The notes under the pieces are model-generated. The model was not told where the DNA came from. It searched no databases and saw only the letters and a list, made by a program, of their open reading frames with translations. DNA of 14,443 nucleotides from Clostridia bacterium (GTDB lineage: Bacteria > Bacillota > Clostridia > Christensenellales > Aristaeellaceae): the NCBI GenBank assembly GCA_024404275.1, contig JAKSQG010000028.1, positions 1 through 14,443 of the forward strand, read 5' to 3'. This document shows positions 253-14,443 of this stretch, one piece after another. Position numbers and translations under genes: made by a program. The first letter of the stretch is position 1, and each line of letters opens with the position of its first letter.

Positions 253-981
253 ATGGATCAGAACGTTAAGCTCATTGCCATGGATCTTGACGGCACACTG
301 ACACAGCATCGTTCTCTCCTCGGAGAAGAAAACCGTGCTGTGCTGAGTGAGCTCAAACAGCATTATGAGCTGCTCATGGTCGGGGCCGGCACCTGCCGCC
401 GCATATTTGATCAGATGCAGCAGTTTCCTATAAACATTATCGGCAACTACGGTATGCAGGAATCCCGCTATACAGATAAAAACGGTTTTGAACTTATCCG
501 CAGTGAGGATGCTTCCGTTGACAAAGCAGAAGTGCTTCGCCGTTCCGCCGCCATCCGCAACAAGTATGCTTTGAACACCTGGGCCGGTGAAACGCTTGAG
601 ATCCATCCGACCGGTATGCTCACCTTTCCCGTCCTGGGCACAAAGGCGCAGATCGCCGACAAGCTAAGCTATGACCCCGATAAATCCAAGCGCACTGTGA
701 TGTATCCTTTTGTAAAGGAACTCTTTTATGACTATAACGTCATGATCGGCGGCAGCTCTTCCTTTGATATCGTTCCCGGTCGCTTCGGCAAGAAGAACGC
801 GCTGACCCGCTATATGGCAGAGCACGGCTACACCATGGATCAGGTCGTCTACTGCGGCGACGATTTCGCCGAGGGCGGCAACGATCATGATGTGTATGCT
901 GCGGGCTTCCGCTTTATCAAGGTGGACCATTATCAGAATTTCGGCCGGCTCATCCGTGAAGCCGGTCTGTTGGGAGATTGA
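253..981 (+). CDS. HAD-superfamily hydrolase, subfamily IIB (Cof-like sugar-phosphate phosphatase)
   Basis: Uninterrupted 242-aa ORF ending in TGA. HAD motif I is IAMDLDGTL at the N-terminus and motif IV-like is CGDDFAEGGNDHDV near the C-terminus. The cap region between them is typical of IIB members. Confidence 0.8.
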   Translation: MDQNVKLIAMDLDGTLTQHRSLLGEENRAVLSELKQHYELLMVGAGTCRRIFDQMQQFPINIIGNYGMQESRYTDKNGFELIRSEDASVDKAEVLRRSAAIRNKYALNTWAGETLEIHPTGMLTFPVLGTKAQIADKLSYDPDKSKRTVMYPFVKELFYDYNVMIGGSSSFDIVPGRFGKKNALTRYMAEHGYTMDQVVYCGDDFAEGGNDHDVYAAGFRFIKVDHYQNFGRLIREAGLLGD

Positions 982-984
982 TTT

Positions 985-1704
985 ATGGCTACGCTCTATT
1001 CTCAGGTGGAAAACTATGTCCGTGAGGGGATCAACAACGGCCGATGGGCACCCGGTGATGTGCTGCCCAAAGAAGTCGAGTTGTGCGAGCAGTTCGGCGT
1101 CAGCCGTCCGACGGTGCGCACCGCGCTGAGCAAGCTGGTACAGGAAGGCTACATCCAGCGCATCAAGCGTAAGGGCACCGTGGTGCGTGAATGGCGCACG
1201 CTGGCTTCCTCCACCCTCTTCATCGAATCCTTCCATAAAGAACTGGAAGAAGAAGATGTGGATGTGGTGACCGAGGTGCTCGATCGCCGTCTGGTCGATG
1301 CCCCCGAGGATGTGCGCAAGCACCTGCATCTGCCCACGGGCGCAAAGATGGCGCTGCTGCGCCGGCTGTGCTATGCCCGTGACTCCTTTGCCAAGGGACC
1401 TGTTGTGCTGACCACTTCTTATCTGAATGAAAAGATCTGGCCCGTGCTGAAGGACTCCGACCTGGAGCATGTTTCGCTGCATGCCGTAACGGAGCAGTGC
1501 GACTGCAAGCGTGTGCAGATGGAAAAGGAGATCACGCTGCACTATCTGACCGTTGACGAAGCACGCATTCTGTGCGAAAGCACCGGTGCGCCTGCCTTCA
1601 AGGTCAGCACCGTCAGCTATGACCGTCACGGACGTGTGGTGGACTGGTGCGAAAGCATCTATCCCCCAAACCGCAACAAGTTTACCCTGTGCATCCGCAA
1701 GTAA
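985..1704 (+). CDS. GntR-family transcriptional regulator, HutC subfamily (wHTH plus UTRA effector domain)
   Basis: 239-aa ORF starting 3 nt after the HAD stop and ending in TAA. The N-terminal winged helix is LPKEVELCEQFGVSRPTVRTALSKLVQEGYIQRIKRKGTVV. The roughly 160-aa C-terminal length is consistent with UTRA. Confidence 0.85.
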   Translation: MATLYSQVENYVREGINNGRWAPGDVLPKEVELCEQFGVSRPTVRTALSKLVQEGYIQRIKRKGTVVREWRTLASSTLFIESFHKELEEEDVDVVTEVLDRRLVDAPEDVRKHLHLPTGAKMALLRRLCYARDSFAKGPVVLTTSYLNEKIWPVLKDSDLEHVSLHAVTEQCDCKRVQMEKEITLHYLTVDEARILCESTGAPAFKVSTVSYDRHGRVVDWCESIYPPNRNKFTLCIRK

Positions 1705-1734
1705 TCTGAATTCTATATAAAGAAGGTGTTTTGG

Positions 1735-2661
1735 TTGCGCCTTTCCACCTCCAGCAATATCTGCAATTTTGACCGCGGTCAGCCCTACATGGTGTCGTTT
1801 GAAGAAGCCCTCCGCATCTGCGCCGCCGCCGGTTACAAATACATCGATGCCAATCTTTGCGGTCTTGCCCGCCCCGGCAAGAAGGTCAGCCCTCTGACGC
1901 AGGAGGACTGGATGGAGAAGGCAAAATAGTGGCGGCAGCTGGCGGATGAGCTGGGGATCACGCTTTTGCAGGGTCACGCCTGGTGGGCCATCGGTCGCGG
2001 CGTACAGCAAGGAGAAAACCCCGGTGACGAATTCGGGGAAGAGATGATGCGCCGCAGCGTACTGGCAGCGGAGCAGTTGGGCATCCGTGAGCTGGTGGTG
2101 CACCCCTACTCGGTCTTCCGGGGCGACACAATGCTGACAGATGAGGGGTACGCCGACAATCTGCGCTATTTCAGCCGTTGGGCGGCATTTTTCAAGCAGC
2201 ACAACATGGAAATGTGCATTGAAAACATGGTTGGCAAGCCCGGCAGTGAAAACCCGAGCATCTGGGCTGACGTCACCCGTCTGTGCCGTCTTGTCGACGA
2301 GATCGGCGAGCCGCATGTGGGGACTTGTCTGGATACCGGCCATGCATTCCTGTCAGGAGATGATCCCGCCGCATGCGCGCGGCAAATGGGCAGCCGGCTC
2401 AAGGCTACACACATTGCCGACAACAAGGGCGACCGGGATGCGCACGTCTCCCCCTTCATGGGCAGTATTGACTGGCCGGAGCTGGTGCGTGCCCTGCGTG
2501 ACATCGGTTATCAGAATGATTTCTCCTTTGAAACGCAGAACCTGTCCGCCTGCTTCCCGCTGGCGGTGCAGCCGGAGATCATCCGCTTCTCGTATACGCT
2601 GGGTGAATACCTGCTCTCCGACGCACTGTTTACCGATATCGGACAGCAGCCGCCGATGTAA
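1735..2661 (+). CDS. Sugar phosphate isomerase/epimerase (xylose isomerase-like TIM barrel), interrupted by an in-frame TAG at 1927-1929
   Basis: Track ORFs 1726-1929 and 1966-2661 are in the same frame. Reading through gives ...EDWMEKAK[TAG]WRQLADELGITLLQGHAWW..., a continuous protein of about 308 aa. Family-typical motifs are present: VVHP, CIEN, LDTGH, FSFE. The likely start is TTG 1735 (M-RLSTSSNI...), 6 nt after AGAAGGTG; GTG 1726 is an alternative. The gene ends in TAA. Under code 11 it would be a pseudogene or split gene. Confidence 0.75.
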
Positions 2662-2674
2662 ACTTTGCTGATTG

Positions 2675-2711
2675 CCGCTTTCTGTATGATACAGGAAGCG
2701 GTTTTTTGTTT
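2675..2711 (+). terminator. Rho-independent terminator of the HAD-GntR-isomerase operon
   Basis: An 11-bp stem pairs 2675-2685 (CCGCTTTCTGT) with 2691-2701 (ACAGGAAGCGG), including one G-U pair. The loop is 5 nt and is followed by TTTTTTGTTT (2702-2711), 14 nt after the TAA stop. Confidence 0.75.
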
Positions 2712-2739
2712 GCGCAATCTGATTCCGCTGTGTTATAAT
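2710..2739 (+). promoter_or_regulatory. Sigma-A-type promoter for the CotH-family gene
   Basis: TTGCGC (2710-2715), an 18-nt spacer, then TATAAT (2734-2739) with TG at 2731-2732 (extended -10). GGAGG RBS at 2772-2776, 8 nt before the ATG at 2785. Confidence 0.5.
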
Positions 2740-2784
2740 ATATATCTGTACGATTTTGCCGCGTTCTGCACGGAGGCTTGAGAT

Positions 2785-4776
2785 ATGAAAAAAACATTCC
2801 TTCTGCTTATGTTCCTGCTGGCGCTGCTGCCCATTGGCGTAAGCGCCGACATCATCATCAATGAGGCCATGGCCAGCAACGGCGTGTTCCTCAATGAACG
2901 CCACGACGACTGGATCGAACTGTACAACAGCGGCAGCGACAAGGTATCGCTGGAGGGATGGTATCTGAGCAACGATCCCTTCAATCTGCACAAGTGGAGC
3001 TTTCCCGCCAAGGCTTCCATCAAAAAGGACGGCTACCTCGTTATTTATTGTACCGATGATGATGTGATCACAGGCGGTCCCTCCGGTGCCATCTATGCCA
3101 ATTTCAAACTGTCCGCCAAAGGCGAATCGGTCTATCTGACCGACCCCGACGGCAGCACGACCTCTGTGACCTTCGGTGCACAGTTTGGCAACATATCAAG
3201 CGGTATTCCAAGCGGAGGTGAGGGCTGGCATTACCTGGAGAAGTCCACCCCCGGGGCTGTCAACAGCAGCGCCGCTTATGACGCCCGTGCCAAGGAGCCT
3301 GTCATCGAAACCGCCGCCGGCTTTTACAGCGGCAGCGTCATCGTGACCATGAGCTGTGCCGAGGGACAGGAAATACGCTACACCACGGACAGCAGCGAGC
3401 CCGACCGCAATTCAACGCTGTACACGGAGCCCTTTGAGATCAAAAAGACCACGGTCATCCGCGCCCGTGCCTTTGGCAGTGAGCTGCTCGGCTCCACCAC
3501 CGCAGGCAGCACCTTCTTCATCAACGACGCCGCGGTGGATGCGTCGGTCCCCATCGTTTCCATCTATACCGATCGCGATTACTTCTTCTCCAACAAAATG
3601 GGCATCCTCGTGGAAGGCAACGCCAAGAACCCCAATTATAACCGCAACTGGGAATACCCGGTGACCATTGAGTATTTTGACGAGAACAAGACCCGTGTGA
3701 TCGCCCAGACAGGCAGCGTCAAGGTCAACGGCGGCTCCTCCCGTCAGAATCGTCAGAAAAAATCACTGGCCATTTACGCCCGCAGCGTATACGGCGGCAG
3801 CGACAGCTTTGATTATCCCTTCTTCGAAAACCGCGATTACGATTCTTATTCCACCATTCTGCTGCGCTCCACCGCCTCCGACTTCAACTCCTGCCGCTTG
3901 CGCGACGCGGTATTCGGTGAGATGAGTGACGGTCTCGGCGTCTACTATCAGGCAGGTCGCCCCATCATTGTCTTCATCAACGGCGAATACTACGGTCACT
4001 ACAATCTGCGTGAAAAGCCCAACAAGTATTCCCTGGCACAGTGGGAGGGCATTACCGACCCCGATGTCATCAAGGGCGTGGATATTCTGATGGGCACCGG
4101 CATGAACGCCACCGATGTGGTGCAGGGCAGCTCCGCCGACTGGGTGGAACTGATGAACTACTGCCGGAAGAACAAACTGGACACTCCCGAAAAACTGCAG
4201 TATGTGCTGGACAGGGTCGATATCGACAGCCTGTACAACTACGCTATCTTTAATATCATCCTCGGCAACTACGATATCGGCAACACCCGCGTATATCGTT
4301 TCCCCGGTGGAAAATGGAAGTTTATGCTGCATGACATCGAATCCGGCTGCATGGGCGACAAGAGCGATCCCCTTGGTTCCATCATCCGCAGCAAAAGCAG
4401 CAAGACCAACAACTATCCTCACTATATTCTGGCCGCGCTGCTGGAGCAGGAGGAATACAAGGATCTGTTCCTGCGCCGCACCGCGGAGATCGTCAAAAGC
4501 AATTTCCTTTATTCCGAACAGGTCAAGCCCATCTATGAAAAATGGTCCGCCAAGCTGGAAGAGCTGCTGCCGCGGCATCTGACCAAGTTCCGCAGTTTCA
4601 GCAGCATCAAAGACTGGCGTGTCAATGTGAAAGCCAGCATGTATTATGCGCGTATCCGTCCGCGCAAGATGATCGATCAGATCTGTTCCAAGCTGGGCGT
4701 CCAATCCGCCGCCAAGCAGGAGTATTTCGGTGAGGTCTTCAAGCTGCTGGACATTTACAATGCCGAAGGAACATAA
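2785..4776 (+). CDS. Secreted CotH-family protein (signal peptide, lamin-tail domain, chitobiase/hexosaminidase-C-like Ig domain, CotH kinase-like domain)
   Basis: 663-aa uninterrupted ORF ending in TAA. Signal peptide: MKKTFLLLMFLLALLPIGVSA. LTD-like segment: IIINEAMASN...DDWIELYNSGSDKVSLEGWYLSND...GYLVIYCT. CHB_HEX_C-like segment: FYSGSVIVTMSCAEGQEIRYTTDSSEPDRNSTLYTEPFEIKKTTVIRARAF. CotH-like core: SLAIYAR...LRSTASDFNSCRLRDAVF...VFINGEYYGHYNLREKP...MLHDIESG. Confidence 0.8.
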   Translation: MKKTFLLLMFLLALLPIGVSADIIINEAMASNGVFLNERHDDWIELYNSGSDKVSLEGWYLSNDPFNLHKWSFPAKASIKKDGYLVIYCTDDDVITGGPSGAIYANFKLSAKGESVYLTDPDGSTTSVTFGAQFGNISSGIPSGGEGWHYLEKSTPGAVNSSAAYDARAKEPVIETAAGFYSGSVIVTMSCAEGQEIRYTTDSSEPDRNSTLYTEPFEIKKTTVIRARAFGSELLGSTTAGSTFFINDAAVDASVPIVSIYTDRDYFFSNKMGILVEGNAKNPNYNRNWEYPVTIEYFDENKTRVIAQTGSVKVNGGSSRQNRQKKSLAIYARSVYGGSDSFDYPFFENRDYDSYSTILLRSTASDFNSCRLRDAVFGEMSDGLGVYYQAGRPIIVFINGEYYGHYNLREKPNKYSLAQWEGITDPDVIKGVDILMGTGMNATDVVQGSSADWVELMNYCRKNKLDTPEKLQYVLDRVDIDSLYNYAIFNIILGNYDIGNTRVYRFPGGKWKFMLHDIESGCMGDKSDPLGSIIRSKSSKTNNYPHYILAALLEQEEYKDLFLRRTAEIVKSNFLYSEQVKPIYEKWSAKLEELLPRHLTKFRSFSSIKDWRVNVKASMYYARIRPRKMIDQICSKLGVQSAAKQEYFGEVFKLLDIYNAEGT

Positions 4777-4793
4777 ATCATCAACATAAAAAC

Positions 4794-4840
4794 CACCCTT
4801 GCACTCGCGAAAGAAATCTCTTCTTCTCTGTGCAAGGGTG
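4794..4840. terminator. Bidirectional rho-independent terminator between the convergent CotH and solute-binding-protein genes
   Basis: A perfect 11-bp stem pairs CACCCTTGCAC (4794-4804) with GTGCAAGGGTG (4830-4840) around a 25-nt loop. It is flanked by TTATTATT on the plus side and, on the minus strand, by the T-tract that is the complement of ATAAAAA (4787-4793). Confidence 0.65.
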
Positions 4841-4871
4841 TTATTATTGAGGGTAATTGTCTTTTCTTTTG

Positions 4872-6443
4872 TTACCTTCTGAAACTGTCCAGACCGCGCA
4901 GCACCTACGGCTCGCGCACGTCACGGGCATCGGTGAACATCTCGCGCGTCAGGATGGCGCCGTTGCGGTAATACAGGCAGATGAACGGACAATCCTGCCA
5001 GAACAGATTCTGAATGTCGATGAGCGCGCTCTTATAGGAATCAAAATCCAGCGCAGCGCGCAGCTTTTTGTGCAGCGCATCCATGGAGGAATTTTTATAA
5101 CGGCCGTAGTTGCCGGTGTTGCCGCTCATCAGCAGATAGCCGGGGTCCGGCGTAAAATCGATGTTGTAGGCGCAGATGCATAAGTCATAGCTGGCGGCAT
5201 TCAGTTTTTCCTGCGCGTTTTTGAAGGTATAGGTCACCACGGAGCATTCAATGCCCACCGCCGCAAGATCATCGGCGATGCGGTTGGCCGTTTCCACGCG
5301 TACGGAATTGTCCTGCTCCTCATACACATAAAAGCGCAGATGCAGATTGGCTTTGCCGCCGTTGATGATGGTATCCCGCACGCCGTCGCCGTCGGTATCG
5401 GTCCACCCGGCTTCCTCCAGCAGCGCCATGGCCTTCTGGCGGTTGGTCTCCTGTTTGGTGGCACCATCCCAGTACGTCCAGGTATTGGGAATCAGCGGCG
5501 TATCGGTACGGGTGACCATGCCGTAATACACATTGTTGGCGATGTCGTCAATGTTGATGGCGTAGCGGATGGCCTGACGCACCCGCACATCATTCAGCTC
5601 CCGGGACGCGTTATTGAGCATGAGCACTTCCAGCTGGGTAGTGCGGAAGTCAATGTTATAAGAGTTGACGCCGCTGCGGTACTGTGCCGCCGTGATGGCG
5701 CGGGTCAGGATGGCATCGACGTTACCGTACTCGTAGTCGGTGATCAGGCTGCGGCTCTTGTCATAGAAGATCACCATGATCTGTTTATAGTCGGGTGCCT
5801 GTTTCCACCAGCCATTGTAGGCGGACAAAAGCAGATAGGAATCCTTATCGTAGATATCCAGATAATAGGCGCCTGTGCCCACGGGGTTAGCCGCCTGGAC
5901 CTCGCTGCTTTTGAGGACAGGGAAGGTCATGGCATACAGGAAACCGAAATTGGCGCGGTCTGTCGTGATGACCACGGTGGAGTTGTCACTGGCCTGAATG
6001 CTGTTGACAAAATACTTGAGGGTGGAATAGCGGCCTGTTTTTTCTTCATTCGCCAGGCGCAAAATCTCCTGCGCCGTCGCTACCACATCATAGGCTGTCA
6101 GCGGCGTGCCATCGTGAAAGGTAATGCCTTTGCGTAAATAAAAATACCATGTTTTTCCGTTCGCGGAGGAGGAGTAGCTTTCGCACAGACAGGGCTGCGG
6201 CATATAGTCATCATCCAGCTACAGCAGACCCTCGTACATCAGGTCGGTCACGCTCATGAATTCGCGCTCCACCGGCACCAGCGGATTGACCTTTTCGGTG
6301 GCCACCGAAATAATGCCGATATGCAGCGCGTCAGACACATAATCCGCCCCCGCCGTCTGCGGCATCATGGAAAGCAGCAGCACTGCCAGCAAAAGCAGGC
6401 TGTTAATGCGCGTCCGGATAGAAATGCTGGAAATAGATCGCAT
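4872..6443 (-). CDS. ABC-transporter substrate-binding protein, family 5 (peptide/nickel/opine type), with in-frame TAG at 6219-6221 and a second TAG at 4905-4907
   Basis: Track ORFs 6219-6500 and 4905-6203 are in the same frame. Read-through gives ...SVTDLMYEGLL[TAG]LDDDYMPQPCLCESYSSSANGKTWYFYLRKGITFHDG..., the canonical N-terminal region of SBP_bac_5. The probable start is ATG 6441-6443 (MRSISSISIRTRINSLLLLAVLLLSMMPQTAGA signal peptide). The standard-code end is TAG 4905-4907; reading through adds VLRGLDSFRR and then TAA at 4872-4874. Under code 11 this is a split or pseudo gene (6219-6443 plus 4905-6203). Confidence 0.7.
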
Positions 6444-7104
6444 AGGCTTCGTAAACCTTTCTTGCGTAATAGCGGGTATCATCGGTGGGGATGGTATCAA
6501 TGGTCAGCGTGTGTCCGTCCTCCGAATGGTTCATCATCCAGTACTTGACATTGTTAGCCCCGGCGTGATAGGCACTGGCCATTTTGATGGGGTCGCCGTT
6601 GAATTCCCGGCTCAGACGCCCCAGATAATAGCAGCCGTAACGGATGTTGGTCTCGGGGTCGAACATATCGTCAAAGGTGGTCTTTCCCTCTTCATCCAGC
6701 CAGCGGCAGATATCGGTGAAGGTGCCCTGCATGATCTGCATCAGTCCGCGGGCACCCACGCTGCTGACCGCCTTTGGGTCATAGCTGCTCTAACGCAGGA
6801 TGATGGCTGCCACGAAAGCGGGATGAATGTCGTTTTCGGCGGCGTACTTTTCAATCCAGTCACGGTAGCGCACCGTGTGGCGGTTGACCAGCGTTTCATA
6901 GGCGGCGGCTTCCCGCTCTCTTTCCTGCTCCAGCTGACGGAGGTTGCCCTTCATCAGACCCAGCAGCAGAATGGACAAAATCAGCAGAAGGCTCAGCACG
7001 ATGACTGTTTTAAGCGGAAAAGGCGCTTTCATGGAAAAGAACAGCACTGGTCGCTTCTTTTCCTGTTCGGAACGCCGTCTGCGAACCGTCTGATCTTCAC
7101 TCAT
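6403..7104 (-). CDS. Membrane-anchored lytic transglycosylase (SLT domain, GH23), interrupted by an in-frame TAG at 6790-6792
   Basis: Track ORFs 6790-7176 and 6403-6759 are in the same frame. Read-through gives ...HPAFVAAIILR[TAG]SSYDPKAVSSVGARGLMQIMQGT...AYHAGANNV, the SLT signature, with the TAG at the catalytic Glu of the E-S motif. The N-terminus has a basic stretch followed by a TM helix (TVIVLSLLLILSILLLGL). The likely start is ATG 7102-7104 (MSEDQ...), which overlaps the coaE stop as ATGAGTGA. The gene ends in TAA. Confidence 0.75.
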
Positions 7105-7708
7105 GGCGCATGCTCCTTTCCGCGGCGCGCAGCAACCGCCGCGCTCGCTTTTGCGTTTCTCCAAGCGGTCTGTCATTTTGGATCACATGATCCGCCCGCT
7201 TTGCTTTCTCGTCAAGCGGCATCTGCGCATCGATGCGCGCTTCCGCTTCCGCTGCCGGCAGATGATCGCGGCGATGGATGCGGCGGATCTGCGTCCCCCG
7301 GCGCACGGTGACGCACCAGGTCTCATCGCACAAGCGGTCCATGCCCGTTTCAAACAGCAGGGGGACATCCCACACCAGCACCGCTGCCGCGCTTTCCCCG
7401 GTCTGCCGCTGCATGCGGCCAATGACCAGCGGATGCAGGATGGCGTTCAGCTTTTCCAGCGCTTCGGGATGCCCAAACACCGCTTGCCCGAGGGCACGGC
7501 GGTTGAGCACTTCACCGTTGAATACCTCATCCCCAAAGACAGCGCGGATCTGCGGCAAAGCTTCGCCGCCCTCCGCGGTCAGTTCATGGGAGATGGCATC
7601 AGCATCCAGCACCGGTACACCCAGCGTACGCAGATAGCGGGCCACCGTGCTTTTGCCGCAGGCGATGCCGCCTGTCAGACCGATTACATACGGCTTATTT
7701 GGTTTCAT
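7097..7708 (-). CDS. coaE: Dephospho-CoA kinase
   Basis: 203-aa ORF ending in TGA. The N-terminal P-loop is VIGLTGGIACGKSTV, and the length and layout are typical of CoaE. It lies immediately downstream of polA, a common Firmicute arrangement, and its start overlaps the polA 3' end by 14 nt. Confidence 0.9.
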   Translation of the reverse strand: MKPNKPYVIGLTGGIACGKSTVARYLRTLGVPVLDADAISHELTAEGGEALPQIRAVFGDEVFNGEVLNRRALGQAVFGHPEALEKLNAILHPLVIGRMQRQTGESAAAVLVWDVPLLFETGMDRLCDETWCVTVRRGTQIRRIHRRDHLPAAEAEARIDAQMPLDEKAKRADHVIQNDRPLGETQKRARRLLRAAERSMRHE

Positions 7709-10238
7709 ACCAGCTCTTTCCGGTGTGCACTTCTACGGTCAGCGGCACATCCAGCTCCATCACGTGCTCCATGCAGTCGCGCAGCAGCGCTTCCACCACA
7801 GCGCTTTCCTCCTCGGGGCATTCGATGATCAGTTCATCGTGTACCTGCAGAATGAGACGAGCCTTCAAGCCCTTCTCCTTGAGGGCACTGTGCACACGCA
7901 CCATGGCCAGCTTGATAATATCGGCAGCTGTGCCCTGCACAGGCGTGTTCATGGCGGCACGCTCGCCGAAGGAGCGCACATTGGCATTGGCCGCCTTGAG
8001 CTCGGGCAGTCTGCGCACACGGCCGAACAGCGTGCGGCTTTCCCCCGCGGCATAGCCATCGGCCACCGCTTTTTTCATAAAGCGCTGCACGCCGGGATAG
8101 GTCTCAAAATACTTTTGGATGAAGGCATCGGCTTCCTTGCGGCTCATGCCCGTGTTGCGCGCCAAGCCGAAACCGCTGATGCCATACACCAGCCCGAAGT
8201 TGACCGCCTTGGCGTTGGAGCGCAGCTGCGGCGTTACCTCTTCGATGGGGATTCCCGCCACCTCTGCCGCCGTACGGGCGTGGATATCCTGTCCCCTGCG
8301 GAAGGCGTCCAGCATGGCGGCATCGCCCGAGAAGTGCGCCAGGATGCGCAGCTCGATCTGGCTGTAGTCGGCATCCACCAGCACACAGCCGGGGGCAGCC
8401 GTGAAGGCGCGGCGGATTTCCCGTCCCAGCGGCGTACGCACAGGAATGTTCTGCAGATTGGGCTCCGCGCTGGAGATACGCCCCGTAGCGGTGCCCGTCT
8501 GGTCGAAGCTGGTGTGGATGCGCCCGTCGGGCCCGATCTTTCGGATCAATGCCTCGATGTAGGTGCTGTTCAGCTTGCTGACCTGACGATACTCCAGAAT
8601 CATGCCAATGACAGGATGATCGTCCTTCAGCGCTTCCAGCGTATCGGCATCGGTACTGTAGCCCTTCTGCGTCTTTTTGCCGGCACGAAGGCCCAGCTTT
8701 TCAAACAGGATAACACCCAGCTGCTTGGGAGAATTGATGTTGAAGGTTTCGCCCGATGCGGCATAGATCATTTCCTGCAGTTCCTTTTCCCGGGCGGACA
8801 GACGGCTGCCGATATCCCGCAGCACCTGCGCATCGGCGCAGAAGCCCACGCTTTCCATATCGCGGAGTACAGTCAAAAGCGGCAGCTCGATCTCATCCAT
8901 GACGCGGGTCAGTTTCTCTTTTTTCAGGGCGGCTTCCTGACGCTGCATCAGCGTCAGCACACCCGAGGCATCGTTATCGGCAAAGGCGGACAGATGATAA
9001 CTCTTTTCCTGCGGATTGAGCACATACGCCGCCAGCATGGTATCAAAGGCAATTTCGGGCAGCGGACGGCCCTCCGCCGCAAGGCGGTGCAAAAGACGCT
9101 TGCCGTCATGGGTAATGACCTTGCCCTGCCACAACGCATCACAGTCGGAAAGCGGATCGCCGCCCATCGCGGGCAGATCAAACAGCCCGATCTGACCGCC
9201 CAGCTGCACACGGGCACGGCTGGTGCCCAACGCTGCCGAAAGGGTTTCATCTCCCAGCAGCACGGCAGGGATACCCTTCGCCAGTTTCTGCGCGGCGGCG
9301 GCATCCAGCTCGGTCCAATCTTCAAAAACAGGGGCTTCAACCGGCGTTTCGGTCTCGGTCTCCGCTGCGGCGGCGGAAGTGCCGAACTCTTTTTCCAGAC
9401 GCTGCGCCAGCTGCATCAGACCGTACTTTTTCATCAGCGGCACGGCGTCCGCCATATGATGCACATCGTAATCGTCATAGTGCGGCACGATGGGAATGTT
9501 GCGCAAGATGGTGGCAAGATGCTTGGAGAAGCGGCCGCTCTCGGCGCCGTTCCGTACCTTTTCGCCCAGCTTGCCTTTGATCTCCTCCGCGTGGTCGAGT
9601 ACGTTTTCCAGTGTGCCGTATTCGGTCAACAGCTTGACCGCCGTCTTTTCGCCGATGCCGGCGATGCCTGGAATATGGTCGCTGCTGTCTCCCATCAAGC
9701 CCTTCAGGTCGGTGATCTGCGCGGGCGTGACACCGAACAGCTCCTTGACGCGGGCAGGGGTGCACTCCTCAATTTCGGAAATGCCCTTGCGGGTCAAAAG
9801 CAGCGTGACCTCGTCATCCACCAGCTGCAGGGCGTCGCGGTCGCCGGTCAGCAGCAGCGCGTCCAGACCGTGGGCACGGCAATCCAGCGACAGGGTGCCC
9901 AGAATGTCGTCCGCCTCATAGCCGGAAAGGCTCAGTACCCCCAGCCCCATGGCGGACAGGATCTCCTTGATGATGGCAAACTGGGGCTTGAGCTCCTCCG
10001 GCGTGGCGGCACGCCCGGCCTTGTATTCCGCATACTCGGTATGGCGGAAGGTGGGCGCATGCTCGTCAAAAGCCACGGCGCAGCAGCGGGGCTGACGCTC
10101 CCGGATACAACGCAGCAGCATCATCAAAAAGCCATGCACGGCATTGGTATACACCCCGTCATGGTCCATCAGCGGCAGGGCATGAAAAGCCCGGTACATC
10201 AGGCTGTTTCCGTCCACAATCAGCAGTACATCCCGCAT
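7695..10238 (-). CDS. polA: DNA polymerase I
   Basis: The 5'-nuclease N-terminus is MRDVLLIVDGNSLMYRAFHAL. Pol motif A is VLVDADYSQIELRILAH, motif B is RSNAKAVNFGLVYG and motif C is LQVHDELIIE. The start is placed at ATG 10236-10238, 6 nt after GGAGGTG. The longer track ORF (to 10403) adds a non-homologous leader. The gene ends in TAA. Confidence 0.95.
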   Translation of the reverse strand: MRDVLLIVDGNSLMYRAFHALPLMDHDGVYTNAVHGFLMMLLRCIRERQPRCCAVAFDEHAPTFRHTEYAEYKAGRAATPEELKPQFAIIKEILSAMGLGVLSLSGYEADDILGTLSLDCRAHGLDALLLTGDRDALQLVDDEVTLLLTRKGISEIEECTPARVKELFGVTPAQITDLKGLMGDSSDHIPGIAGIGEKTAVKLLTEYGTLENVLDHAEEIKGKLGEKVRNGAESGRFSKHLATILRNIPIVPHYDDYDVHHMADAVPLMKKYGLMQLAQRLEKEFGTSAAAAETETETPVEAPVFEDWTELDAAAAQKLAKGIPAVLLGDETLSAALGTSRARVQLGGQIGLFDLPAMGGDPLSDCDALWQGKVITHDGKRLLHRLAAEGRPLPEIAFDTMLAAYVLNPQEKSYHLSAFADNDASGVLTLMQRQEAALKKEKLTRVMDEIELPLLTVLRDMESVGFCADAQVLRDIGSRLSAREKELQEMIYAASGETFNINSPKQLGVILFEKLGLRAGKKTQKGYSTDADTLEALKDDHPVIGMILEYRQVSKLNSTYIEALIRKIGPDGRIHTSFDQTGTATGRISSAEPNLQNIPVRTPLGREIRRAFTAAPGCVLVDADYSQIELRILAHFSGDAAMLDAFRRGQDIHARTAAEVAGIPIEEVTPQLRSNAKAVNFGLVYGISGFGLARNTGMSRKEADAFIQKYFETYPGVQRFMKKAVADGYAAGESRTLFGRVRRLPELKAANANVRSFGERAAMNTPVQGTAADIIKLAMVRVHSALKEKGLKARLILQVHDELIIECPEEESAVVEALLRDCMEHVMELDVPLTVEVHTGKSWYETK

Positions 10239-10259
10239 AGGTCGCACCTCCACAATACC

Positions 10260-10288
10260 ATTATACCACACCCGCGGCAGGAATACAA
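10260..10288 (-). promoter_or_regulatory. Sigma-A-type promoter for the polA-coaE-slt-SBP operon
   Basis: On the minus strand: TTGTAT (complement of 10283-10288), a 17-nt spacer, then TGgTATAAT (TATAAT is the complement of 10260-10265). The GGAGGTG RBS follows just downstream. Confidence 0.5.
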
Positions 10289-10320
10289 AGGGGCGAAAAG
10301 CGGCTTGCATGGTAAAAAGC

Positions 10321-10349
10321 TTGCATCCACAGCGGTTTTTGACTATAAT
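10321..10349 (+). promoter_or_regulatory. Sigma-A-type promoter for the deacetylase-parE-parC unit
   Basis: TTGCAT (10321-10326), a 17-nt spacer, then TATAAT (10344-10349). It is divergent from the polA promoter. Confidence 0.55.
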
Positions 10350-10380
10350 ATAAGGTATGAAAGTATGCTTTTCCGGGAGG

Positions 10381-11736
10381 ATGAACGTTTTGAAGCGATT
10401 CACCGTGCTTTTAGCCGTTTTGATTTTGCTTCTGCTTGCCGCCTTTGCGCACGCGGAAGAGGTTTCCTATTATACCGAAACGCCGGAGCTGCTCCGCTTC
10501 AGCCAGACCATCAGTGAGAAAAAAACGGTCGGCAAAAAGGGCTGGTACACCTGTACCTATCCCAAAACCGCCCGTGAGGATGTCAACGCCGCCATCGCCT
10601 CTTTGGTGGACGACATGACCGCCGCTCAGCTGGACGCGCTGAAGGCGCTCAAGTGTGAGGACGAAGCCTGGCTGGATACGGGAGCCGAAATCAGCCGCAC
10701 CGGCGAAAAGTATCTGAGTTTTCTGCTCATCAGCCGGCTGTCGAGCGACAACACACTGGTCAACACCGATATGACCACCCGTGTCTATGACATGGAAAGC
10801 GGTACTCAGCTTTTTCTGACGGATCTGTTTGACACCGGGTCCGATTTTTGGACACTGCTTGAGCAGGAGGTGCGCACCCAGCTGACCGCTTACTTCGGCG
10901 AGGCTGTCGCCCCCGACACCGACGCGCTGGACGCCCTGTGCCGCCGCGAAGCGCTGGAAAAGGCCGATTTTACGTTGGAAGCCGCATCTCTGCAGCTGCA
11001 CTACCCGGCGGATGTACTCTACGAAGGCAAGGAAACGCTGATGCATGTGCGCCTGTGGTACAGGGATGTGCGCCCGCTGATGAACGGAGCCGCTGCCCAG
11101 AGTGTGGATAACAGCCGCTACCGCATGGTCGCAATGACGTATGATGACGGTCCCTCGGTCTATACCAAGCGGCTGCTCAATTATTACCGCAACTATGGCT
11201 ATAAATGCACCTTCTTCGTCATTGGTCAGCGCTTTGGCTATGCCAACACCCTGCAGCGTGAACATGACGCCGGGCATCAGGTGGCGAGCCATACCTACGC
11301 GCATGACATCGTCACCCGCAAGACCATTGACTGGTGCCTGGATGACTGGGCTAAAATGACAAACGGCATGCAGCGCCTCTTTGGCAAAGCGCCGGTTTGC
11401 ATGCGTGCCCCGGGCGGCAACGACCACAGCTATATGTACGAGGGCAATGTGCCGCTCATCCACTGGTCATGGTCGGCAGCGGACGCAGTGGGCAACAACT
11501 GGAGCGATGAAAAATACGCCAACCGCATCATTGCCAATGTGCGGGATGGCGGCATCATCCTGATGCACGATATCAACAATCTGGTAGCGGATTACTCCAT
11601 CCGTGTACTGCGTCATCTGCAGGACAACGGCTGGATGGCCGTGACCATCGAGGACCTGTTTATGGACGCCGGCTACGCACTGGAAAGCGGCCACATCTAC
11701 TACAGCACCCACGAGATCATCACCGAACCCAAATGA
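10381..11736 (+). CDS. PdaC-like polysaccharide/peptidoglycan deacetylase (signal/anchor peptide, DUF3298/DUF4163-like domain, CE4 NodB domain)
   Basis: CE4 motifs are present: MTYDDGP, ASHTYAHD, MRAPGGN and IILMHD. The N-terminal hydrophobic segment is KRFTVLLAVLILLLLAAFAHA. The start is ambiguous: ATG 10357, ATG 10381, or TTG 10390 (9 nt after GGAGG at 10376-10380). The gene ends in TGA. Confidence 0.8.
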   Translation: MNVLKRFTVLLAVLILLLLAAFAHAEEVSYYTETPELLRFSQTISEKKTVGKKGWYTCTYPKTAREDVNAAIASLVDDMTAAQLDALKALKCEDEAWLDTGAEISRTGEKYLSFLLISRLSSDNTLVNTDMTTRVYDMESGTQLFLTDLFDTGSDFWTLLEQEVRTQLTAYFGEAVAPDTDALDALCRREALEKADFTLEAASLQLHYPADVLYEGKETLMHVRLWYRDVRPLMNGAAAQSVDNSRYRMVAMTYDDGPSVYTKRLLNYYRNYGYKCTFFVIGQRFGYANTLQREHDAGHQVASHTYAHDIVTRKTIDWCLDDWAKMTNGMQRLFGKAPVCMRAPGGNDHSYMYEGNVPLIHWSWSAADAVGNNWSDEKYANRIIANVRDGGIILMHDINNLVADYSIRVLRHLQDNGWMAVTIEDLFMDAGYALESGHIYYSTHEIITEPK

Positions 11737-11746
11737 GAGGATCAAA

Positions 11747-13723
11747 ATGGCAGATAATTCTTACAACGCGGGAAAAATTCAAGTTTTGGAAGGTCTGGAC
11801 GCGGTCCGTATGCGTCCCGGCATGTACATCGGCACCACCTCCGTGCGCGGTCTGCACCACCTGTTATGGGAGATCGTGGACAACGGCATCGATGAGGCGC
11901 TGGCCGGCCATGCCACCGAGGTACAGGTAACGCTGCACAAGGACGGCTCCGCCTCCGTGTGGGATAACGGCCGCGGCGTGCCCGTGGATGAGCATCCCAC
12001 GCTGCATGTCACGGGCATTGAGCTGATCTATACCCGCCTGCACGCGGGCGGCAAATTCGGCAACGACAACTATGCCTATTCCGGCGGTCTGCACGGTGTT
12101 GGCGCTTCGGTGGTCAACGCGCTTTCCAAATGGATGGTAGTCGATTCCTACCGCGATTGGACGCACTATCAGATGCGCTTTGAGACCGTATGGGATGAAA
12201 AAGAAAAGAAGTTCCACGGCGGCCGCCCCGTGACCGGGCTGCAGAAGCTCGGGAACACCCGTAAGCGCGGCACGCTGGTGCGCTTCATGCCCGATGATAC
12301 CATTTTTACCGAGGATCACCGTTTTAACGGCGAGACCGTTTCCCGCCGTCTGCGGGAACTGGCGTACCTCAACAAGGGGCTCAAGATCCTGTTTGTGGAT
12401 GAGCGTGCCAAAGAAGAAAAGGACCGGCAGATGGAATTCTGCTATGCCGGCGGCATCAGCGATTATGTCAAATTCCTGAACAGGGACAAATCACCCCTGC
12501 ATGATGAGCCCATCCTGCTGGAGGGCAAAAAGGACGACGTCATCTGCTCCGTGGCCATGCAGTACACCGACGGCTACACCGAATCGGTGTTCAGCTATGT
12601 CAACAACATTCCCACCGGTGAGGGCGGCACCCACGAGATGGGCTTCCGCACCGCCATGACCCGCGCCTTCAACGATTATGCCCGCAAGATCGGCGCGCTC
12701 AAGGAAAAGGACAACAATCTGGCCGGTGAGGACTTCCGTGAGGGTCTGACCGCCGTGGTGACCGTGATGGTCAAAAACCCGCAGTTTGAAGGACAGACCA
12801 AGGGACGCCTTGGCAACAGCGAGGTCAAGCCCGCCGTGGAAGCCATTCTGTCGCTGCGGCTGGCTGAGTTCCTGGAGAACCTCAAAAACGGCGAGCTGGC
12901 GCAGAAGATCATTGAAAAAGCCGTCAAATCGGCCAAAGTGCGCGAGGCTGCCCGCAAGGCGCGTGACGCCGCCCGCGTGCGCAACTCGCTGGAAGCTGCG
13001 CCGCTGGTGGGCAAGCTGTCCAGCTGCACCGGCCGCAAGCCGCAGGAAAACGAGCTGTTCATCGTGGAGGGCGACTCCGCAGGCGGCAGCGCCAAGCAGG
13101 GCCGTGACCGCCGCTTTCAGGCCATTCTGCCGCTGCGCGGCAAGCCGCTCAACGCCGAAAAGAAGCGCCTCGATCAGGTGCTGGCCAATGAAGAATTCCG
13201 CAGCATCATCACGGCGCTTGGCACCAACATCGATGAGGACTTTGACCTGAACTCCCTCAAATATCACAAGGTCATCATCCTCTCCGATGCCGACCAGGAC
13301 GGCGCGCACATCCGCGCCATTCTGCTCACCTTCTTCTACCGCTACATGCGCGAGCTGGTAGCACAGGGACATGTGTACATCGGCATGCCGCCGCTGTATC
13401 TGGTCAAGCGCCCCGGCAGCGAGGAATACGCCTATGACGACAAAGCGCTGCGTGAGCTGACCGCCGGTAAAAAGAACTATTCCATCCAGCGCTACAAAGG
13501 TCTGGGTGAAATGAACCCTGAGCAATTGTGGGAGACCACCATGGACCCTGCCCGCCGCCGCCTGATGCAGGTCACGCTGGAGGACGCCGCCCGCGAGGAT
13601 GAGATCATCACCGTGCTGATGGGCGACAAGGTCGATCCCCGCCGTGAATACATCATCAGCCACGCCGAATTCAACAAGGTGGACAATTTTGAACAGCACG
13701 CCGATCACATCGGCCAGAAATAA
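11747..13723 (+). CDS. parE: Type IIA DNA topoisomerase subunit B, probably topoisomerase IV ParE
   Basis: 658-aa ORF ending in TAA. GHKL ATPase motifs: LHHLLWEIVDNGIDEA, DNGRGVP, GLHGVGASVVNALS. Toprim motifs: ELFIVEGDSAGGSAKQGRDR, PLRGKPLN, IILSDADQDGAHI. The ParE-over-GyrB call rests on the ParC-like partner gene downstream and the absence of a dnaA/dnaN/recF context. It is not certain. Confidence 0.8.
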   Translation: MADNSYNAGKIQVLEGLDAVRMRPGMYIGTTSVRGLHHLLWEIVDNGIDEALAGHATEVQVTLHKDGSASVWDNGRGVPVDEHPTLHVTGIELIYTRLHAGGKFGNDNYAYSGGLHGVGASVVNALSKWMVVDSYRDWTHYQMRFETVWDEKEKKFHGGRPVTGLQKLGNTRKRGTLVRFMPDDTIFTEDHRFNGETVSRRLRELAYLNKGLKILFVDERAKEEKDRQMEFCYAGGISDYVKFLNRDKSPLHDEPILLEGKKDDVICSVAMQYTDGYTESVFSYVNNIPTGEGGTHEMGFRTAMTRAFNDYARKIGALKEKDNNLAGEDFREGLTAVVTVMVKNPQFEGQTKGRLGNSEVKPAVEAILSLRLAEFLENLKNGELAQKIIEKAVKSAKVREAARKARDAARVRNSLEAAPLVGKLSSCTGRKPQENELFIVEGDSAGGSAKQGRDRRFQAILPLRGKPLNAEKKRLDQVLANEEFRSIITALGTNIDEDFDLNSLKYHKVIILSDADQDGAHIRAILLTFFYRYMRELVAQGHVYIGMPPLYLVKRPGSEEYAYDDKALRELTAGKKNYSIQRYKGLGEMNPEQLWETTMDPARRRLMQVTLEDAAREDEIITVLMGDKVDPRREYIISHAEFNKVDNFEQHADHIGQK

Positions 13724-13747
13724 CCGTCCCTTTCAAAGGAGCCTTTT

Positions 13748-14443
13748 ATGCCTGTAAAACCGCCGGCACCCCCCATTACCCCCGATATCATTCAGATGCC
13801 GCTGGAGGACGTCATGCACATGAGCATGATGCCCTATGCCGAGCATGTCATTTTGGAGCGCGCTCTGCCGCGTGTGGAGGACGGACTCAAGCCCGTACAG
13901 CGCCGCATCCTGTATACCATGATGGAGCTCAGCAACACCCCCGATAAGCCGCACCGCAAGTGTGCGCGTATCGTGGGTGACTGTCTGGGTAAATACCACC
14001 CCCATGGCGACAGTTCTGTCTATGACGCTTTGGTGCGCATGGCACAGGACTTTTCCATGCGTGAGCAGCTGGTGGACGGTCACGGCAACTTCGGTTCGCT
14101 GGACGGTGACAGCGCCGCCGCCATGCGTTATACCGAGGCACGCATGGCTCCGCTGGCACTGGAAATGCTGCGCGATATTGACAAGGATACCGTGCCCTTC
14201 CACCTGAACTTCGACGATACCCTGAAGGAACCCGACATCCTGCCTGCCCGTTTCCCCAACCTGCTGGTCAACGGTACCTCGGGCATTGCGGTCGGTCTTG
14301 CCACGAATATTCCGCCGCACAACCTCAAGGAGGTCATCGACGCCGTCAACCTGCGCATCGATCATCCCGAGGCAGGTCTGGATGAGTTCATGAAGGTGCT
14401 GCCCGGTCCTGATTTTCCCACCGGCGGCATTCTGCTGGACACC
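13748..14443 (+). CDS. parC: Type IIA DNA topoisomerase subunit A, probably topoisomerase IV ParC (5' partial, continues beyond the window)
   Basis: I translated this by hand because it is not on the ORF track (no stop within the window). It starts at ATG 13748, after AAAGGAG. The sequence reads ...[24 protein letters not shown]...[25 protein letters not shown]...[10 protein letters not shown] (active-site Tyr)...[29 protein letters not shown] and KPVQRR favour ParC over GyrB's partner GyrA. Confidence 0.8.

Follow-up and report, generated by a model that had tools for sequence, protein, structure and literature searches.

In-frame TAG codons probably read as glutamate in chromosomal genes of a gut Clostridia lineage

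The stretch of DNA analysed here (the window) is a 14.4-kb chromosomal contig of a Clostridia bacterium (JAKSQG010000028.1, 14,443 nucleotides, ~57% G+C). Four in-frame TAG codons lie within three of its genes, which encode a sugar-phosphate isomerase/epimerase, a family-5 solute-binding protein (SBP) and an SLT lytic transglycosylase. We consider it likely that TAG specifies an amino acid, glutamate being the most probable one, in the lineage comprising the window's species and at least one sister species (GCA_045599485.1). A preliminary description of the window had proposed TAG as a sense codon. This proposal is supported by TAGs shared between genomes, constraint on the sequence downstream of them, interchange of TAG with GAG, and alignment columns that favor Glu. 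The case rests on other genomes, because the arguments available from the window itself (stop-codon usage and the type of nonsense codon) proved weak when quantified.

TAG codons within three genes of the window

As first described, all four TAGs were in frame with the flanking pieces of open reading frame (ORF), and neither a frameshift nor an in-frame TAA or TGA was found in the three genes that bear them. When the TAGs were read through, Pfam models crossed the joins (AP_endonuc_2, 5.6e-33; SBP_bac_5, 6.5e-71; SLT, 3.5e-26).

The TAG at 1927-1929 on the plus strand is codon 65 of the isomerase/epimerase gene (1735-2661, plus strand), which encodes a xylose isomerase-like TIM barrel. Comparison with a 308-aa orthologue (P0121), which is unbroken and 93% identical, places the start at a TTG codon. 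The gene ends with TAA and is full length if the TAG is read through. The 64-aa piece upstream of the TAG recurs in another Logan sample (P0246).

Two TAGs fall within the SBP gene (4872-6443, minus strand, ATG start), at 6219-6221 (codon 75) and 4905-4907 (codon 513). The latter had been described as the terminal codon of the gene, with a TAA 10 codons further on, ahead of a terminator hairpin. The TAA and its position before the hairpin were confirmed. The gene does not end at the TAG, as homologues continue past it: the 10-codon tail that follows (VLRGLDSFRR) is conserved, and homologues carry (E/D)-x-L-R-G-(I/L)-E. Codon 513 is hence internal, and the true stop is the TAA at 4872-4874. The hairpin and U-run after this TAA had a folding energy of -27.1 kcal/mol (z = -4.5). 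A simple terminator scan overlooked this long-looped hairpin, which was detected by folding.

The fourth TAG (6790-6792, minus strand) occupies the catalytic Glu position of the SLT gene (6403-7104, minus strand, TAA stop). It is codon 105 counted from the ATG at 7104, a start that matches the 233-aa orthologue of the sister species. A further upstream ATG at 7176 is also open.

Recurrence in related genomes and downstream constraint

Contigs from the same or a close species, at 94-97.6% nucleotide identity to the window, were found in other samples: L093 (Logan SRR21150839), L094 and L095 (ENA ERZ27247139 and ERZ27247127), and L098 (Logan SRR27361835). L093-L095 are clearly conspecific strains, and L098 (94%) lies right at the border of the species. 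All four overlap the window in part, and every window TAG within the covered part was kept. SBP codon 75 was TAG in L093 and L098, SBP codon 513 was TAG in L098, and SLT codon 105 was TAG in all four. Cluster look-ups revealed further short contigs with the same split pieces (432-aa SBP, 104- to 118-aa SLT, and 64-aa isomerase).

The sister species is represented by L097, the first 12.8 kb of a 38.9-kb contig from the metagenome-assembled genome (MAG) GCA_045599485.1. Its sequence is colinear with that of the window and 87.4% identical. SBP codons 75 and 513 are TAG in both species. Isomerase codon 65 and SLT codon 105, both TAG in the window, are GAG in L097. The reverse holds at parE codon 146 (12182-12184 of the window, plus strand), where the window has GAG (Glu) and L097 has TAG. 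At polA codon 359 (9162-9164 of the window, minus strand), in the linker joining the 5'-3' exonuclease part to the remainder of the protein, GGC (Gly) in the window corresponds to TAG in L097. Across the two species there are six TAG sites in five genes. L098 had the window's codon states at the five compared sites within its span. The L097 pieces were not among the members of the parE and parC protein clusters. Because both SBP TAGs are common to the two species, the recoding would predate their split, and new TAGs appear to have continued to arise after it.

Neutral decay would be expected to yield ~3 non-synonymous changes per synonymous change. Within the species, changes downstream of the SLT TAG were exclusively synonymous in three comparisons (9/0, 9/0, and 8/0 synonymous/non-synonymous), as were those in SBP codons 76-365 (19/0). 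The lack of non-synonymous changes argues that the parts after the TAGs are translated and functional. Between the window and L097, synonymous changes again outnumbered non-synonymous ones downstream of the TAGs in the isomerase (56/13), SBP codons 76-513 (103/13), SLT (19/3), polA codons 360-848 (141/14), and parE codons 147-298 (25/2). The corresponding ratios of non-synonymous to synonymous change (pN/pS) were 0.02-0.07, as low as upstream. These comparisons indicate that the sequence downstream of the TAGs is translated and under strong purifying selection. As a topoisomerase subunit cut at codon 146 would be non-functional, TAG must be read efficiently.

The residue at TAG and competing readings

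Of the four sites at which one species has TAG and the other a sense codon, three pair TAG with GAG, and none pairs it with CAG, AAG, TAY, TGG, TCG, or TTG. If every one-step neighbor were equally acceptable, codon usage would lead to an expectation of ~20% for GAG. Changes between the window and L097 included three GAG/TAG, one GAG/CAG, and one GAG/AAG, the last two being non-synonymous first-position changes. The preliminary description had listed a GAG-to-TAG relationship under possible damage artefacts. The relationship itself is borne out, as an apparent synonymy with GAG (Glu) and not as damage.

The homologue columns point to the same residue. The SLT TAG corresponds to the Glu of an E-S motif that was invariant in 14 of 14 and 18 of 18 homologues, and it aligned with Glu478 of Escherichia coli Slt70, the established catalytic acid of family-1 lytic transglycosylases. 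At parE codon 146, Glu was found in 94 of 115 homologues and Gln in none (0 of 115). At SBP codon 513, the 12 closest representative homologues included 8 with Glu, and 34 of 58 homologues had either Glu or Asp. The columns at isomerase codon 65 and SBP codon 75 are variable, with Glu common in both; at the latter, Glu and Arg were the commonest residues (12 of 57 each). Summed over five sites, column log-odds were +11.9 bits for Glu and -4.3 bits for the next residue. The residue at TAG is thus most probably glutamate.

A different residue, whether Gln, pyrrolysine, or a near-cognate mixture with release factor 1 (RF1) weak or absent, would account for the same evidence of translation. The residue assignment comes from alignments alone, three of the sites sit in variable columns, and neither the window nor the same-clade loci contain a tRNA gene. 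General knowledge also offers routes to Gln: where glutamyl-tRNA synthetase (GluRS) operates with GatCAB, a tRNA derived from tRNA-Gln first carries Glu and is then amidated, and an engineered tRNA-Glu(CUA) in E. coli is mostly charged with Gln. Nevertheless, we regard a residue other than Glu as unlikely. The SLT site holds the catalytic acid, which is Glu in every homologue, and Gln is generally known not to be tolerated there (Slt70 E478Q is inactive). The parE column is devoid of Gln, TAG interchanges with GAG and never with CAG, AAG, TAY, or TGG, and the log-odds place Glu ahead of any other residue by ~16 bits. Against pyrrolysine in particular, no TAG-bearing gene (isomerase, SBP, SLT, parE, or polA) encodes a methylamine methyltransferase.

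Decidedly unlikely, in our view, is that TAG remains mainly a stop read by a weak natural suppressor, with the affected genes being tolerated hypomorphs or yielding separately translated pieces. TAG is rare in the window (4 in ~4,600 codons), and possible start codons follow soon after some TAGs (GTG 6759 in SLT, ATG 6203 in SBP), as this explanation would have it. However, a C-terminal SLT piece would be without the catalytic Glu and the membrane anchor, a C-terminal SBP piece would be without a signal peptide, and parE of the sister species would end at codon 146 of 658. Deleterious nonsense alleles are not expected to survive a species split at 87% identity or to recur at Glu codons. Weak suppression is also at odds with downstream constraint that equals upstream constraint.

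That the three genes are amber pseudogenes fixed in the species is highly improbable. Their pieces are listed as separate or shortened proteins in the public annotation, and the preliminary description had reasoned that random decay should give mixed stops. The all-TAG pattern holds, but this argument is weak alone: under uniform mutation of the window's codons, TAG arises in 54% of nonsense events, so that four TAGs out of four have p ~0.085. More telling against decay, the genes contain no frameshifts or other stops, non-synonymous changes downstream are zero or very few, the TAGs are common to two species, and TAGs also interrupt parE and polA in the sister species. In-frame TAGs are also rare elsewhere. 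A census of the other loci found only 1-2 comparable cases in ~250,000 homology-supported codons, counted after filtering by best-scoring frame, as antisense shadow ORFs otherwise swamped the counts. We therefore rejected pseudogenes, having found neither relaxed constraint nor mixed lesions, and lesions that are conserved between genomes.

Sequencing or assembly error, such as G-to-T oxidative damage, is barely credible: three sites are GAG in a relative and so differ by G-to-T, but the TAGs recur in five or more assemblies made independently from different runs and other samples, 2.4-13% divergent from the window, and G-to-T/C-to-A damage would favor TAA over TAG (49% versus 34% with the window's codon usage), yet no in-frame TAA or TGA was seen. 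A one-off suppressor strain was likewise ruled out by SBP TAGs common to a sister species at 87% identity that has its own TAGs in parE and polA.

Several observations nonetheless weigh against decoding of TAG as Glu. The columns at SBP codon 75 and polA codon 359 (two of the six sites), together with the wider isomerase column, are variable and carry little information on the residue, and the GGC/TAG difference in polA requires more than one mutational step. A tRNA scan, which covered the window and the same-clade loci only, found no tRNA gene in any of them. Nor does this recoding figure in the reports of two large prokaryotic genome screens. The closest outgroup, L096 (a JGI metagenome contig at 73% nucleotide identity), has no TAG in the three genes, with GAG at the SLT site and Thr at SBP codon 75. 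In L002, the nearest GTDB species representative among the matches listed (polA identity 62%), a TAG (~13857-13859) seems to close the SLT gene exactly where homologues end, and TAG thus seems still to terminate in that lineage. L100 and L101, from a more distant genome with parE 90% identical and a different gene order, have no in-frame TAG in 12 genes. Finally, stop-codon usage in the window adds little. The tabulated stops agree with the gene ends first listed: seven of the ten complete genes end with TAA (GntR, isomerase, CotH, SBP, SLT, polA, and parE) and three with TGA (HAD, coaE, and the polysaccharide deacetylase at 10357-11736), so that termination was seen at TAA and TGA only. The counts behind the earlier stop-usage argument were therefore correct, but the genes are too few for significance. 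The absence of TAG ends (0 of 10) compares with an expectation of ~1, since in 90 related loci TAG terminates 64 of the 665 genes supported by homology (~10%).

With these points taken into account, a reasonably likely fuller account is that UAG encodes Glu genome-wide in a small, moderately GC-rich clade of uncultured gut Clostridia that has a tRNA-Glu(CUA) and no functional RF1. It would be the first case of amber being reassigned to a canonical amino acid in a cellular prokaryote, seen early, while GAG and TAG are still exchanging by drift. Such a code would depend on a dedicated tRNA with anticodon CUA, charged with Glu, whose simplest origin would be tRNA-Glu(CUC) by one change at anticodon position 36. 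Charging may be helped by a non-discriminating GluRS, which would already accept YUC and YUG anticodons (C or G at position 36). Non-discriminating GluRS enzymes are common in many Bacillota. RF1 would be lost or weakened and would no longer compete at UAG, leaving RF2 to terminate at UAA and UGA. GAG-to-TAG substitutions would then be nearly neutral, drifting in and out. An Rfam scan of the same-clade loci gave no match.

Genomic context, distribution, and relation to known codes

The window begins with genes for a HAD hydrolase, a GntR regulator, the xylose-isomerase-like TIM-barrel enzyme, and a CotH-family protein. The SBP, SLT, coaE, and polA genes follow on the minus strand, and then the polysaccharide deacetylase gene (10357-11736), parE, and the start of parC/gyrA. 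This last gene begins at ATG 13748 on the plus strand and runs off the window end (public entry MCQ2453544.1, partial). Genes are tightly packed: SLT and SBP overlap by 41 nt (6403-6443), polA and coaE by 14 nt (7695-7708), and the same packing is found in L097. A 210-aa ORF on the minus strand (13733-14365) was rejected as a gene, being the antisense shadow of parC/gyrA. Other long shadow ORFs include 664-2343 (minus strand) and 7647-10517 (plus strand).

The locus is part of a bacterial chromosome and not of a phage, because the polA-coaE-SLT-SBP order is common to other Clostridia MAGs, with orthologues in L002, L004, and L009. A phage-type code 15 does not describe it: gene content and order are chromosomal, and Gln is absent from the informative columns. 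Among the matches listed, the closest species representatives by polA reached 62% identity at most and were MAGs of uncultured Clostridia from the guts of humans and ruminants, with Christensenellales-like genomes further out. A scan of metagenome contigs with CotH gave no match above 64%.

In public annotation of the locus (MAG GCA_024500545.1, proteins MCQ2453531-44), the fragments produced by the TAGs are entered as proteins in their own right: MCQ2453533.1 (64 aa, hypothetical), MCQ2453534.1 (231 aa, isomerase), MCQ2453536.1 (432 aa, SBP), and MCQ2453538.1 (118 aa, SLT). Protein databases consequently contain truncated records for this clade.

The trait is phylogenetically coherent, occurring in the window, in L093-L095 and L098 (94-97.6% identity), and in L097 (87%). 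On present data it appears confined to this narrow clade. As the nearest outgroups show no sign of recoding, the change would be young and narrow, or patchy.

In-frame stops or broken genes were also observed in more distant contigs. In L003 (CALCTW010000010.1; polA identity 59%), coaE contains a single in-frame TAG (~4940-4950) with homology on both sides, and Glu is the most frequent residue at that alignment position (15 of 37). This contig is of doubtful quality and looks chimeric, its SBP ORF running into a MurE/F-like C-terminus (~7200-7260). L003 could be a second recoded lineage or merely a poor assembly. In L099 (ENA, 82% nucleotide identity in parE/parC), parC is in five pieces (9583-12040) through frameshifts and not TAGs. 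This is a typical unpolished long-read assembly and illustrates, by contrast, what assembly noise looks like. A small conserved ORF in a Lachnospiraceae MAG (L058, 83-454) contains an in-frame TAG where three of five homologues have Tyr. A routine TAY-to-TAG nonsense mutation or an error seems the likely cause, and the case gives a hint of the background rate. L089 and L090, near-identical TARA ocean contigs reached through a distant CotH match, have many TAGs in ORFs bounded by TAA and TGA only. They match only each other, and we draw no conclusion from them.

The preliminary description had remarked that TAG reassignment is not established for a Firmicute chromosome, and we likewise found no published case. 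A literature search, which left most subscription-journal papers outside its reach, returned no description of a TAG-to-amino-acid code change, or of UAG-to-Glu, in a bacterial chromosome. All known bacterial stop reassignments involve UGA according to the Codetta screen (PMC8629427). A 2026 report of UGA-to-Trp in Eggerthellaceae agrees, and describes a signature of release factor loss and a mutated tRNA (PMC13462651). A 2026 k-mer screen of 2.7 million assemblies listed no bacterial TAG reassignment. It ascribed TAA/TAG-to-Glu signals in archaeal assemblies to contamination, to which stop-codon inferences are generally prone. Contamination cannot explain the present locus, which is clostridial in both its genes and their order.

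The nearest bacterial parallels are the UGA-to-Trp (table 4) and UGA-to-Gly (table 25) codes of Mycoplasmatales, several insect endosymbionts, Absconditabacteria/Gracilibacteria, and some Eggerthellaceae. There too, a stop became a sense codon throughout a bacterial lineage, and the change shows up as in-frame stops in intact genes where the aligned positions are conserved. One expects to find a tRNA whose anticodon matches the codon, along with loss of the release factor that reads only that codon and UAA (PMC13462651, PMC8629427). Unlike those codes, the one proposed here would involve UAG and Glu, the dispensable factor would be RF1 rather than RF2, and the genome is not AT-rich (~57% G+C). 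Code 15 of crAss-like and other gut phages resembles it in the reading of amber as an amino acid, the gut habitat, the means of detection, and the expectation of a suppressor tRNA (PMC9523058). Those phages, however, insert Gln, often in late genes only, whereas the TAGs described here lie in chromosomal housekeeping genes at probable Glu positions.

UAG is read as Glu in the nuclear code of peritrich ciliates (table 30), in which both UAA and UAG are assigned to Glu. That code differs from the present case in being eukaryotic and nuclear and in involving eRF1, and UAA usually changes as well, whereas UAA is the main terminator in the window (7 of 10 genes). UAG reassignments are also reported for phyllopharyngean ciliates (PMC11687900).

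Pyrrolysine, found in some Bacillota, Deltaproteobacteria, and methanogenic archaea, is another prokaryotic use of in-frame UAG with a dedicated tRNA(CUA). In contrast to the TAGs studied here, which fall on Glu positions across unrelated genes and alternate with GAG, pyrrolysine is typical of methylamine methyltransferases and requires pylTSBCD. Laboratory amber suppressor strains and RF1-free recoded E. coli indicate that a bacterium is viable with UAG as a sense codon when RF1 is removed or an efficient suppressor is present (PMC4434889, PMC6207430). Those are engineered or single laboratory strains, whereas the present case is natural and spans two species and many samples.

If true, a chromosomal UAG-to-Glu code breaks the UGA-only pattern of bacterial stop reassignment and means that RF1-dependent termination can be abandoned in nature. 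It would be a young case, in which sister species differ at single GAG/TAG codons, and would suit tests of the codon-capture and ambiguous-intermediate models. For this clade, whose genes are already split in public annotation, gene calling, estimates of completeness, and protein databases would be wrong. TAG-recoded phages share the habitat, so that host range and phage-host code conflict would be affected. The lineage might also be a source of a natural amber suppressor pair that inserts Glu and of a translation system independent of RF1.

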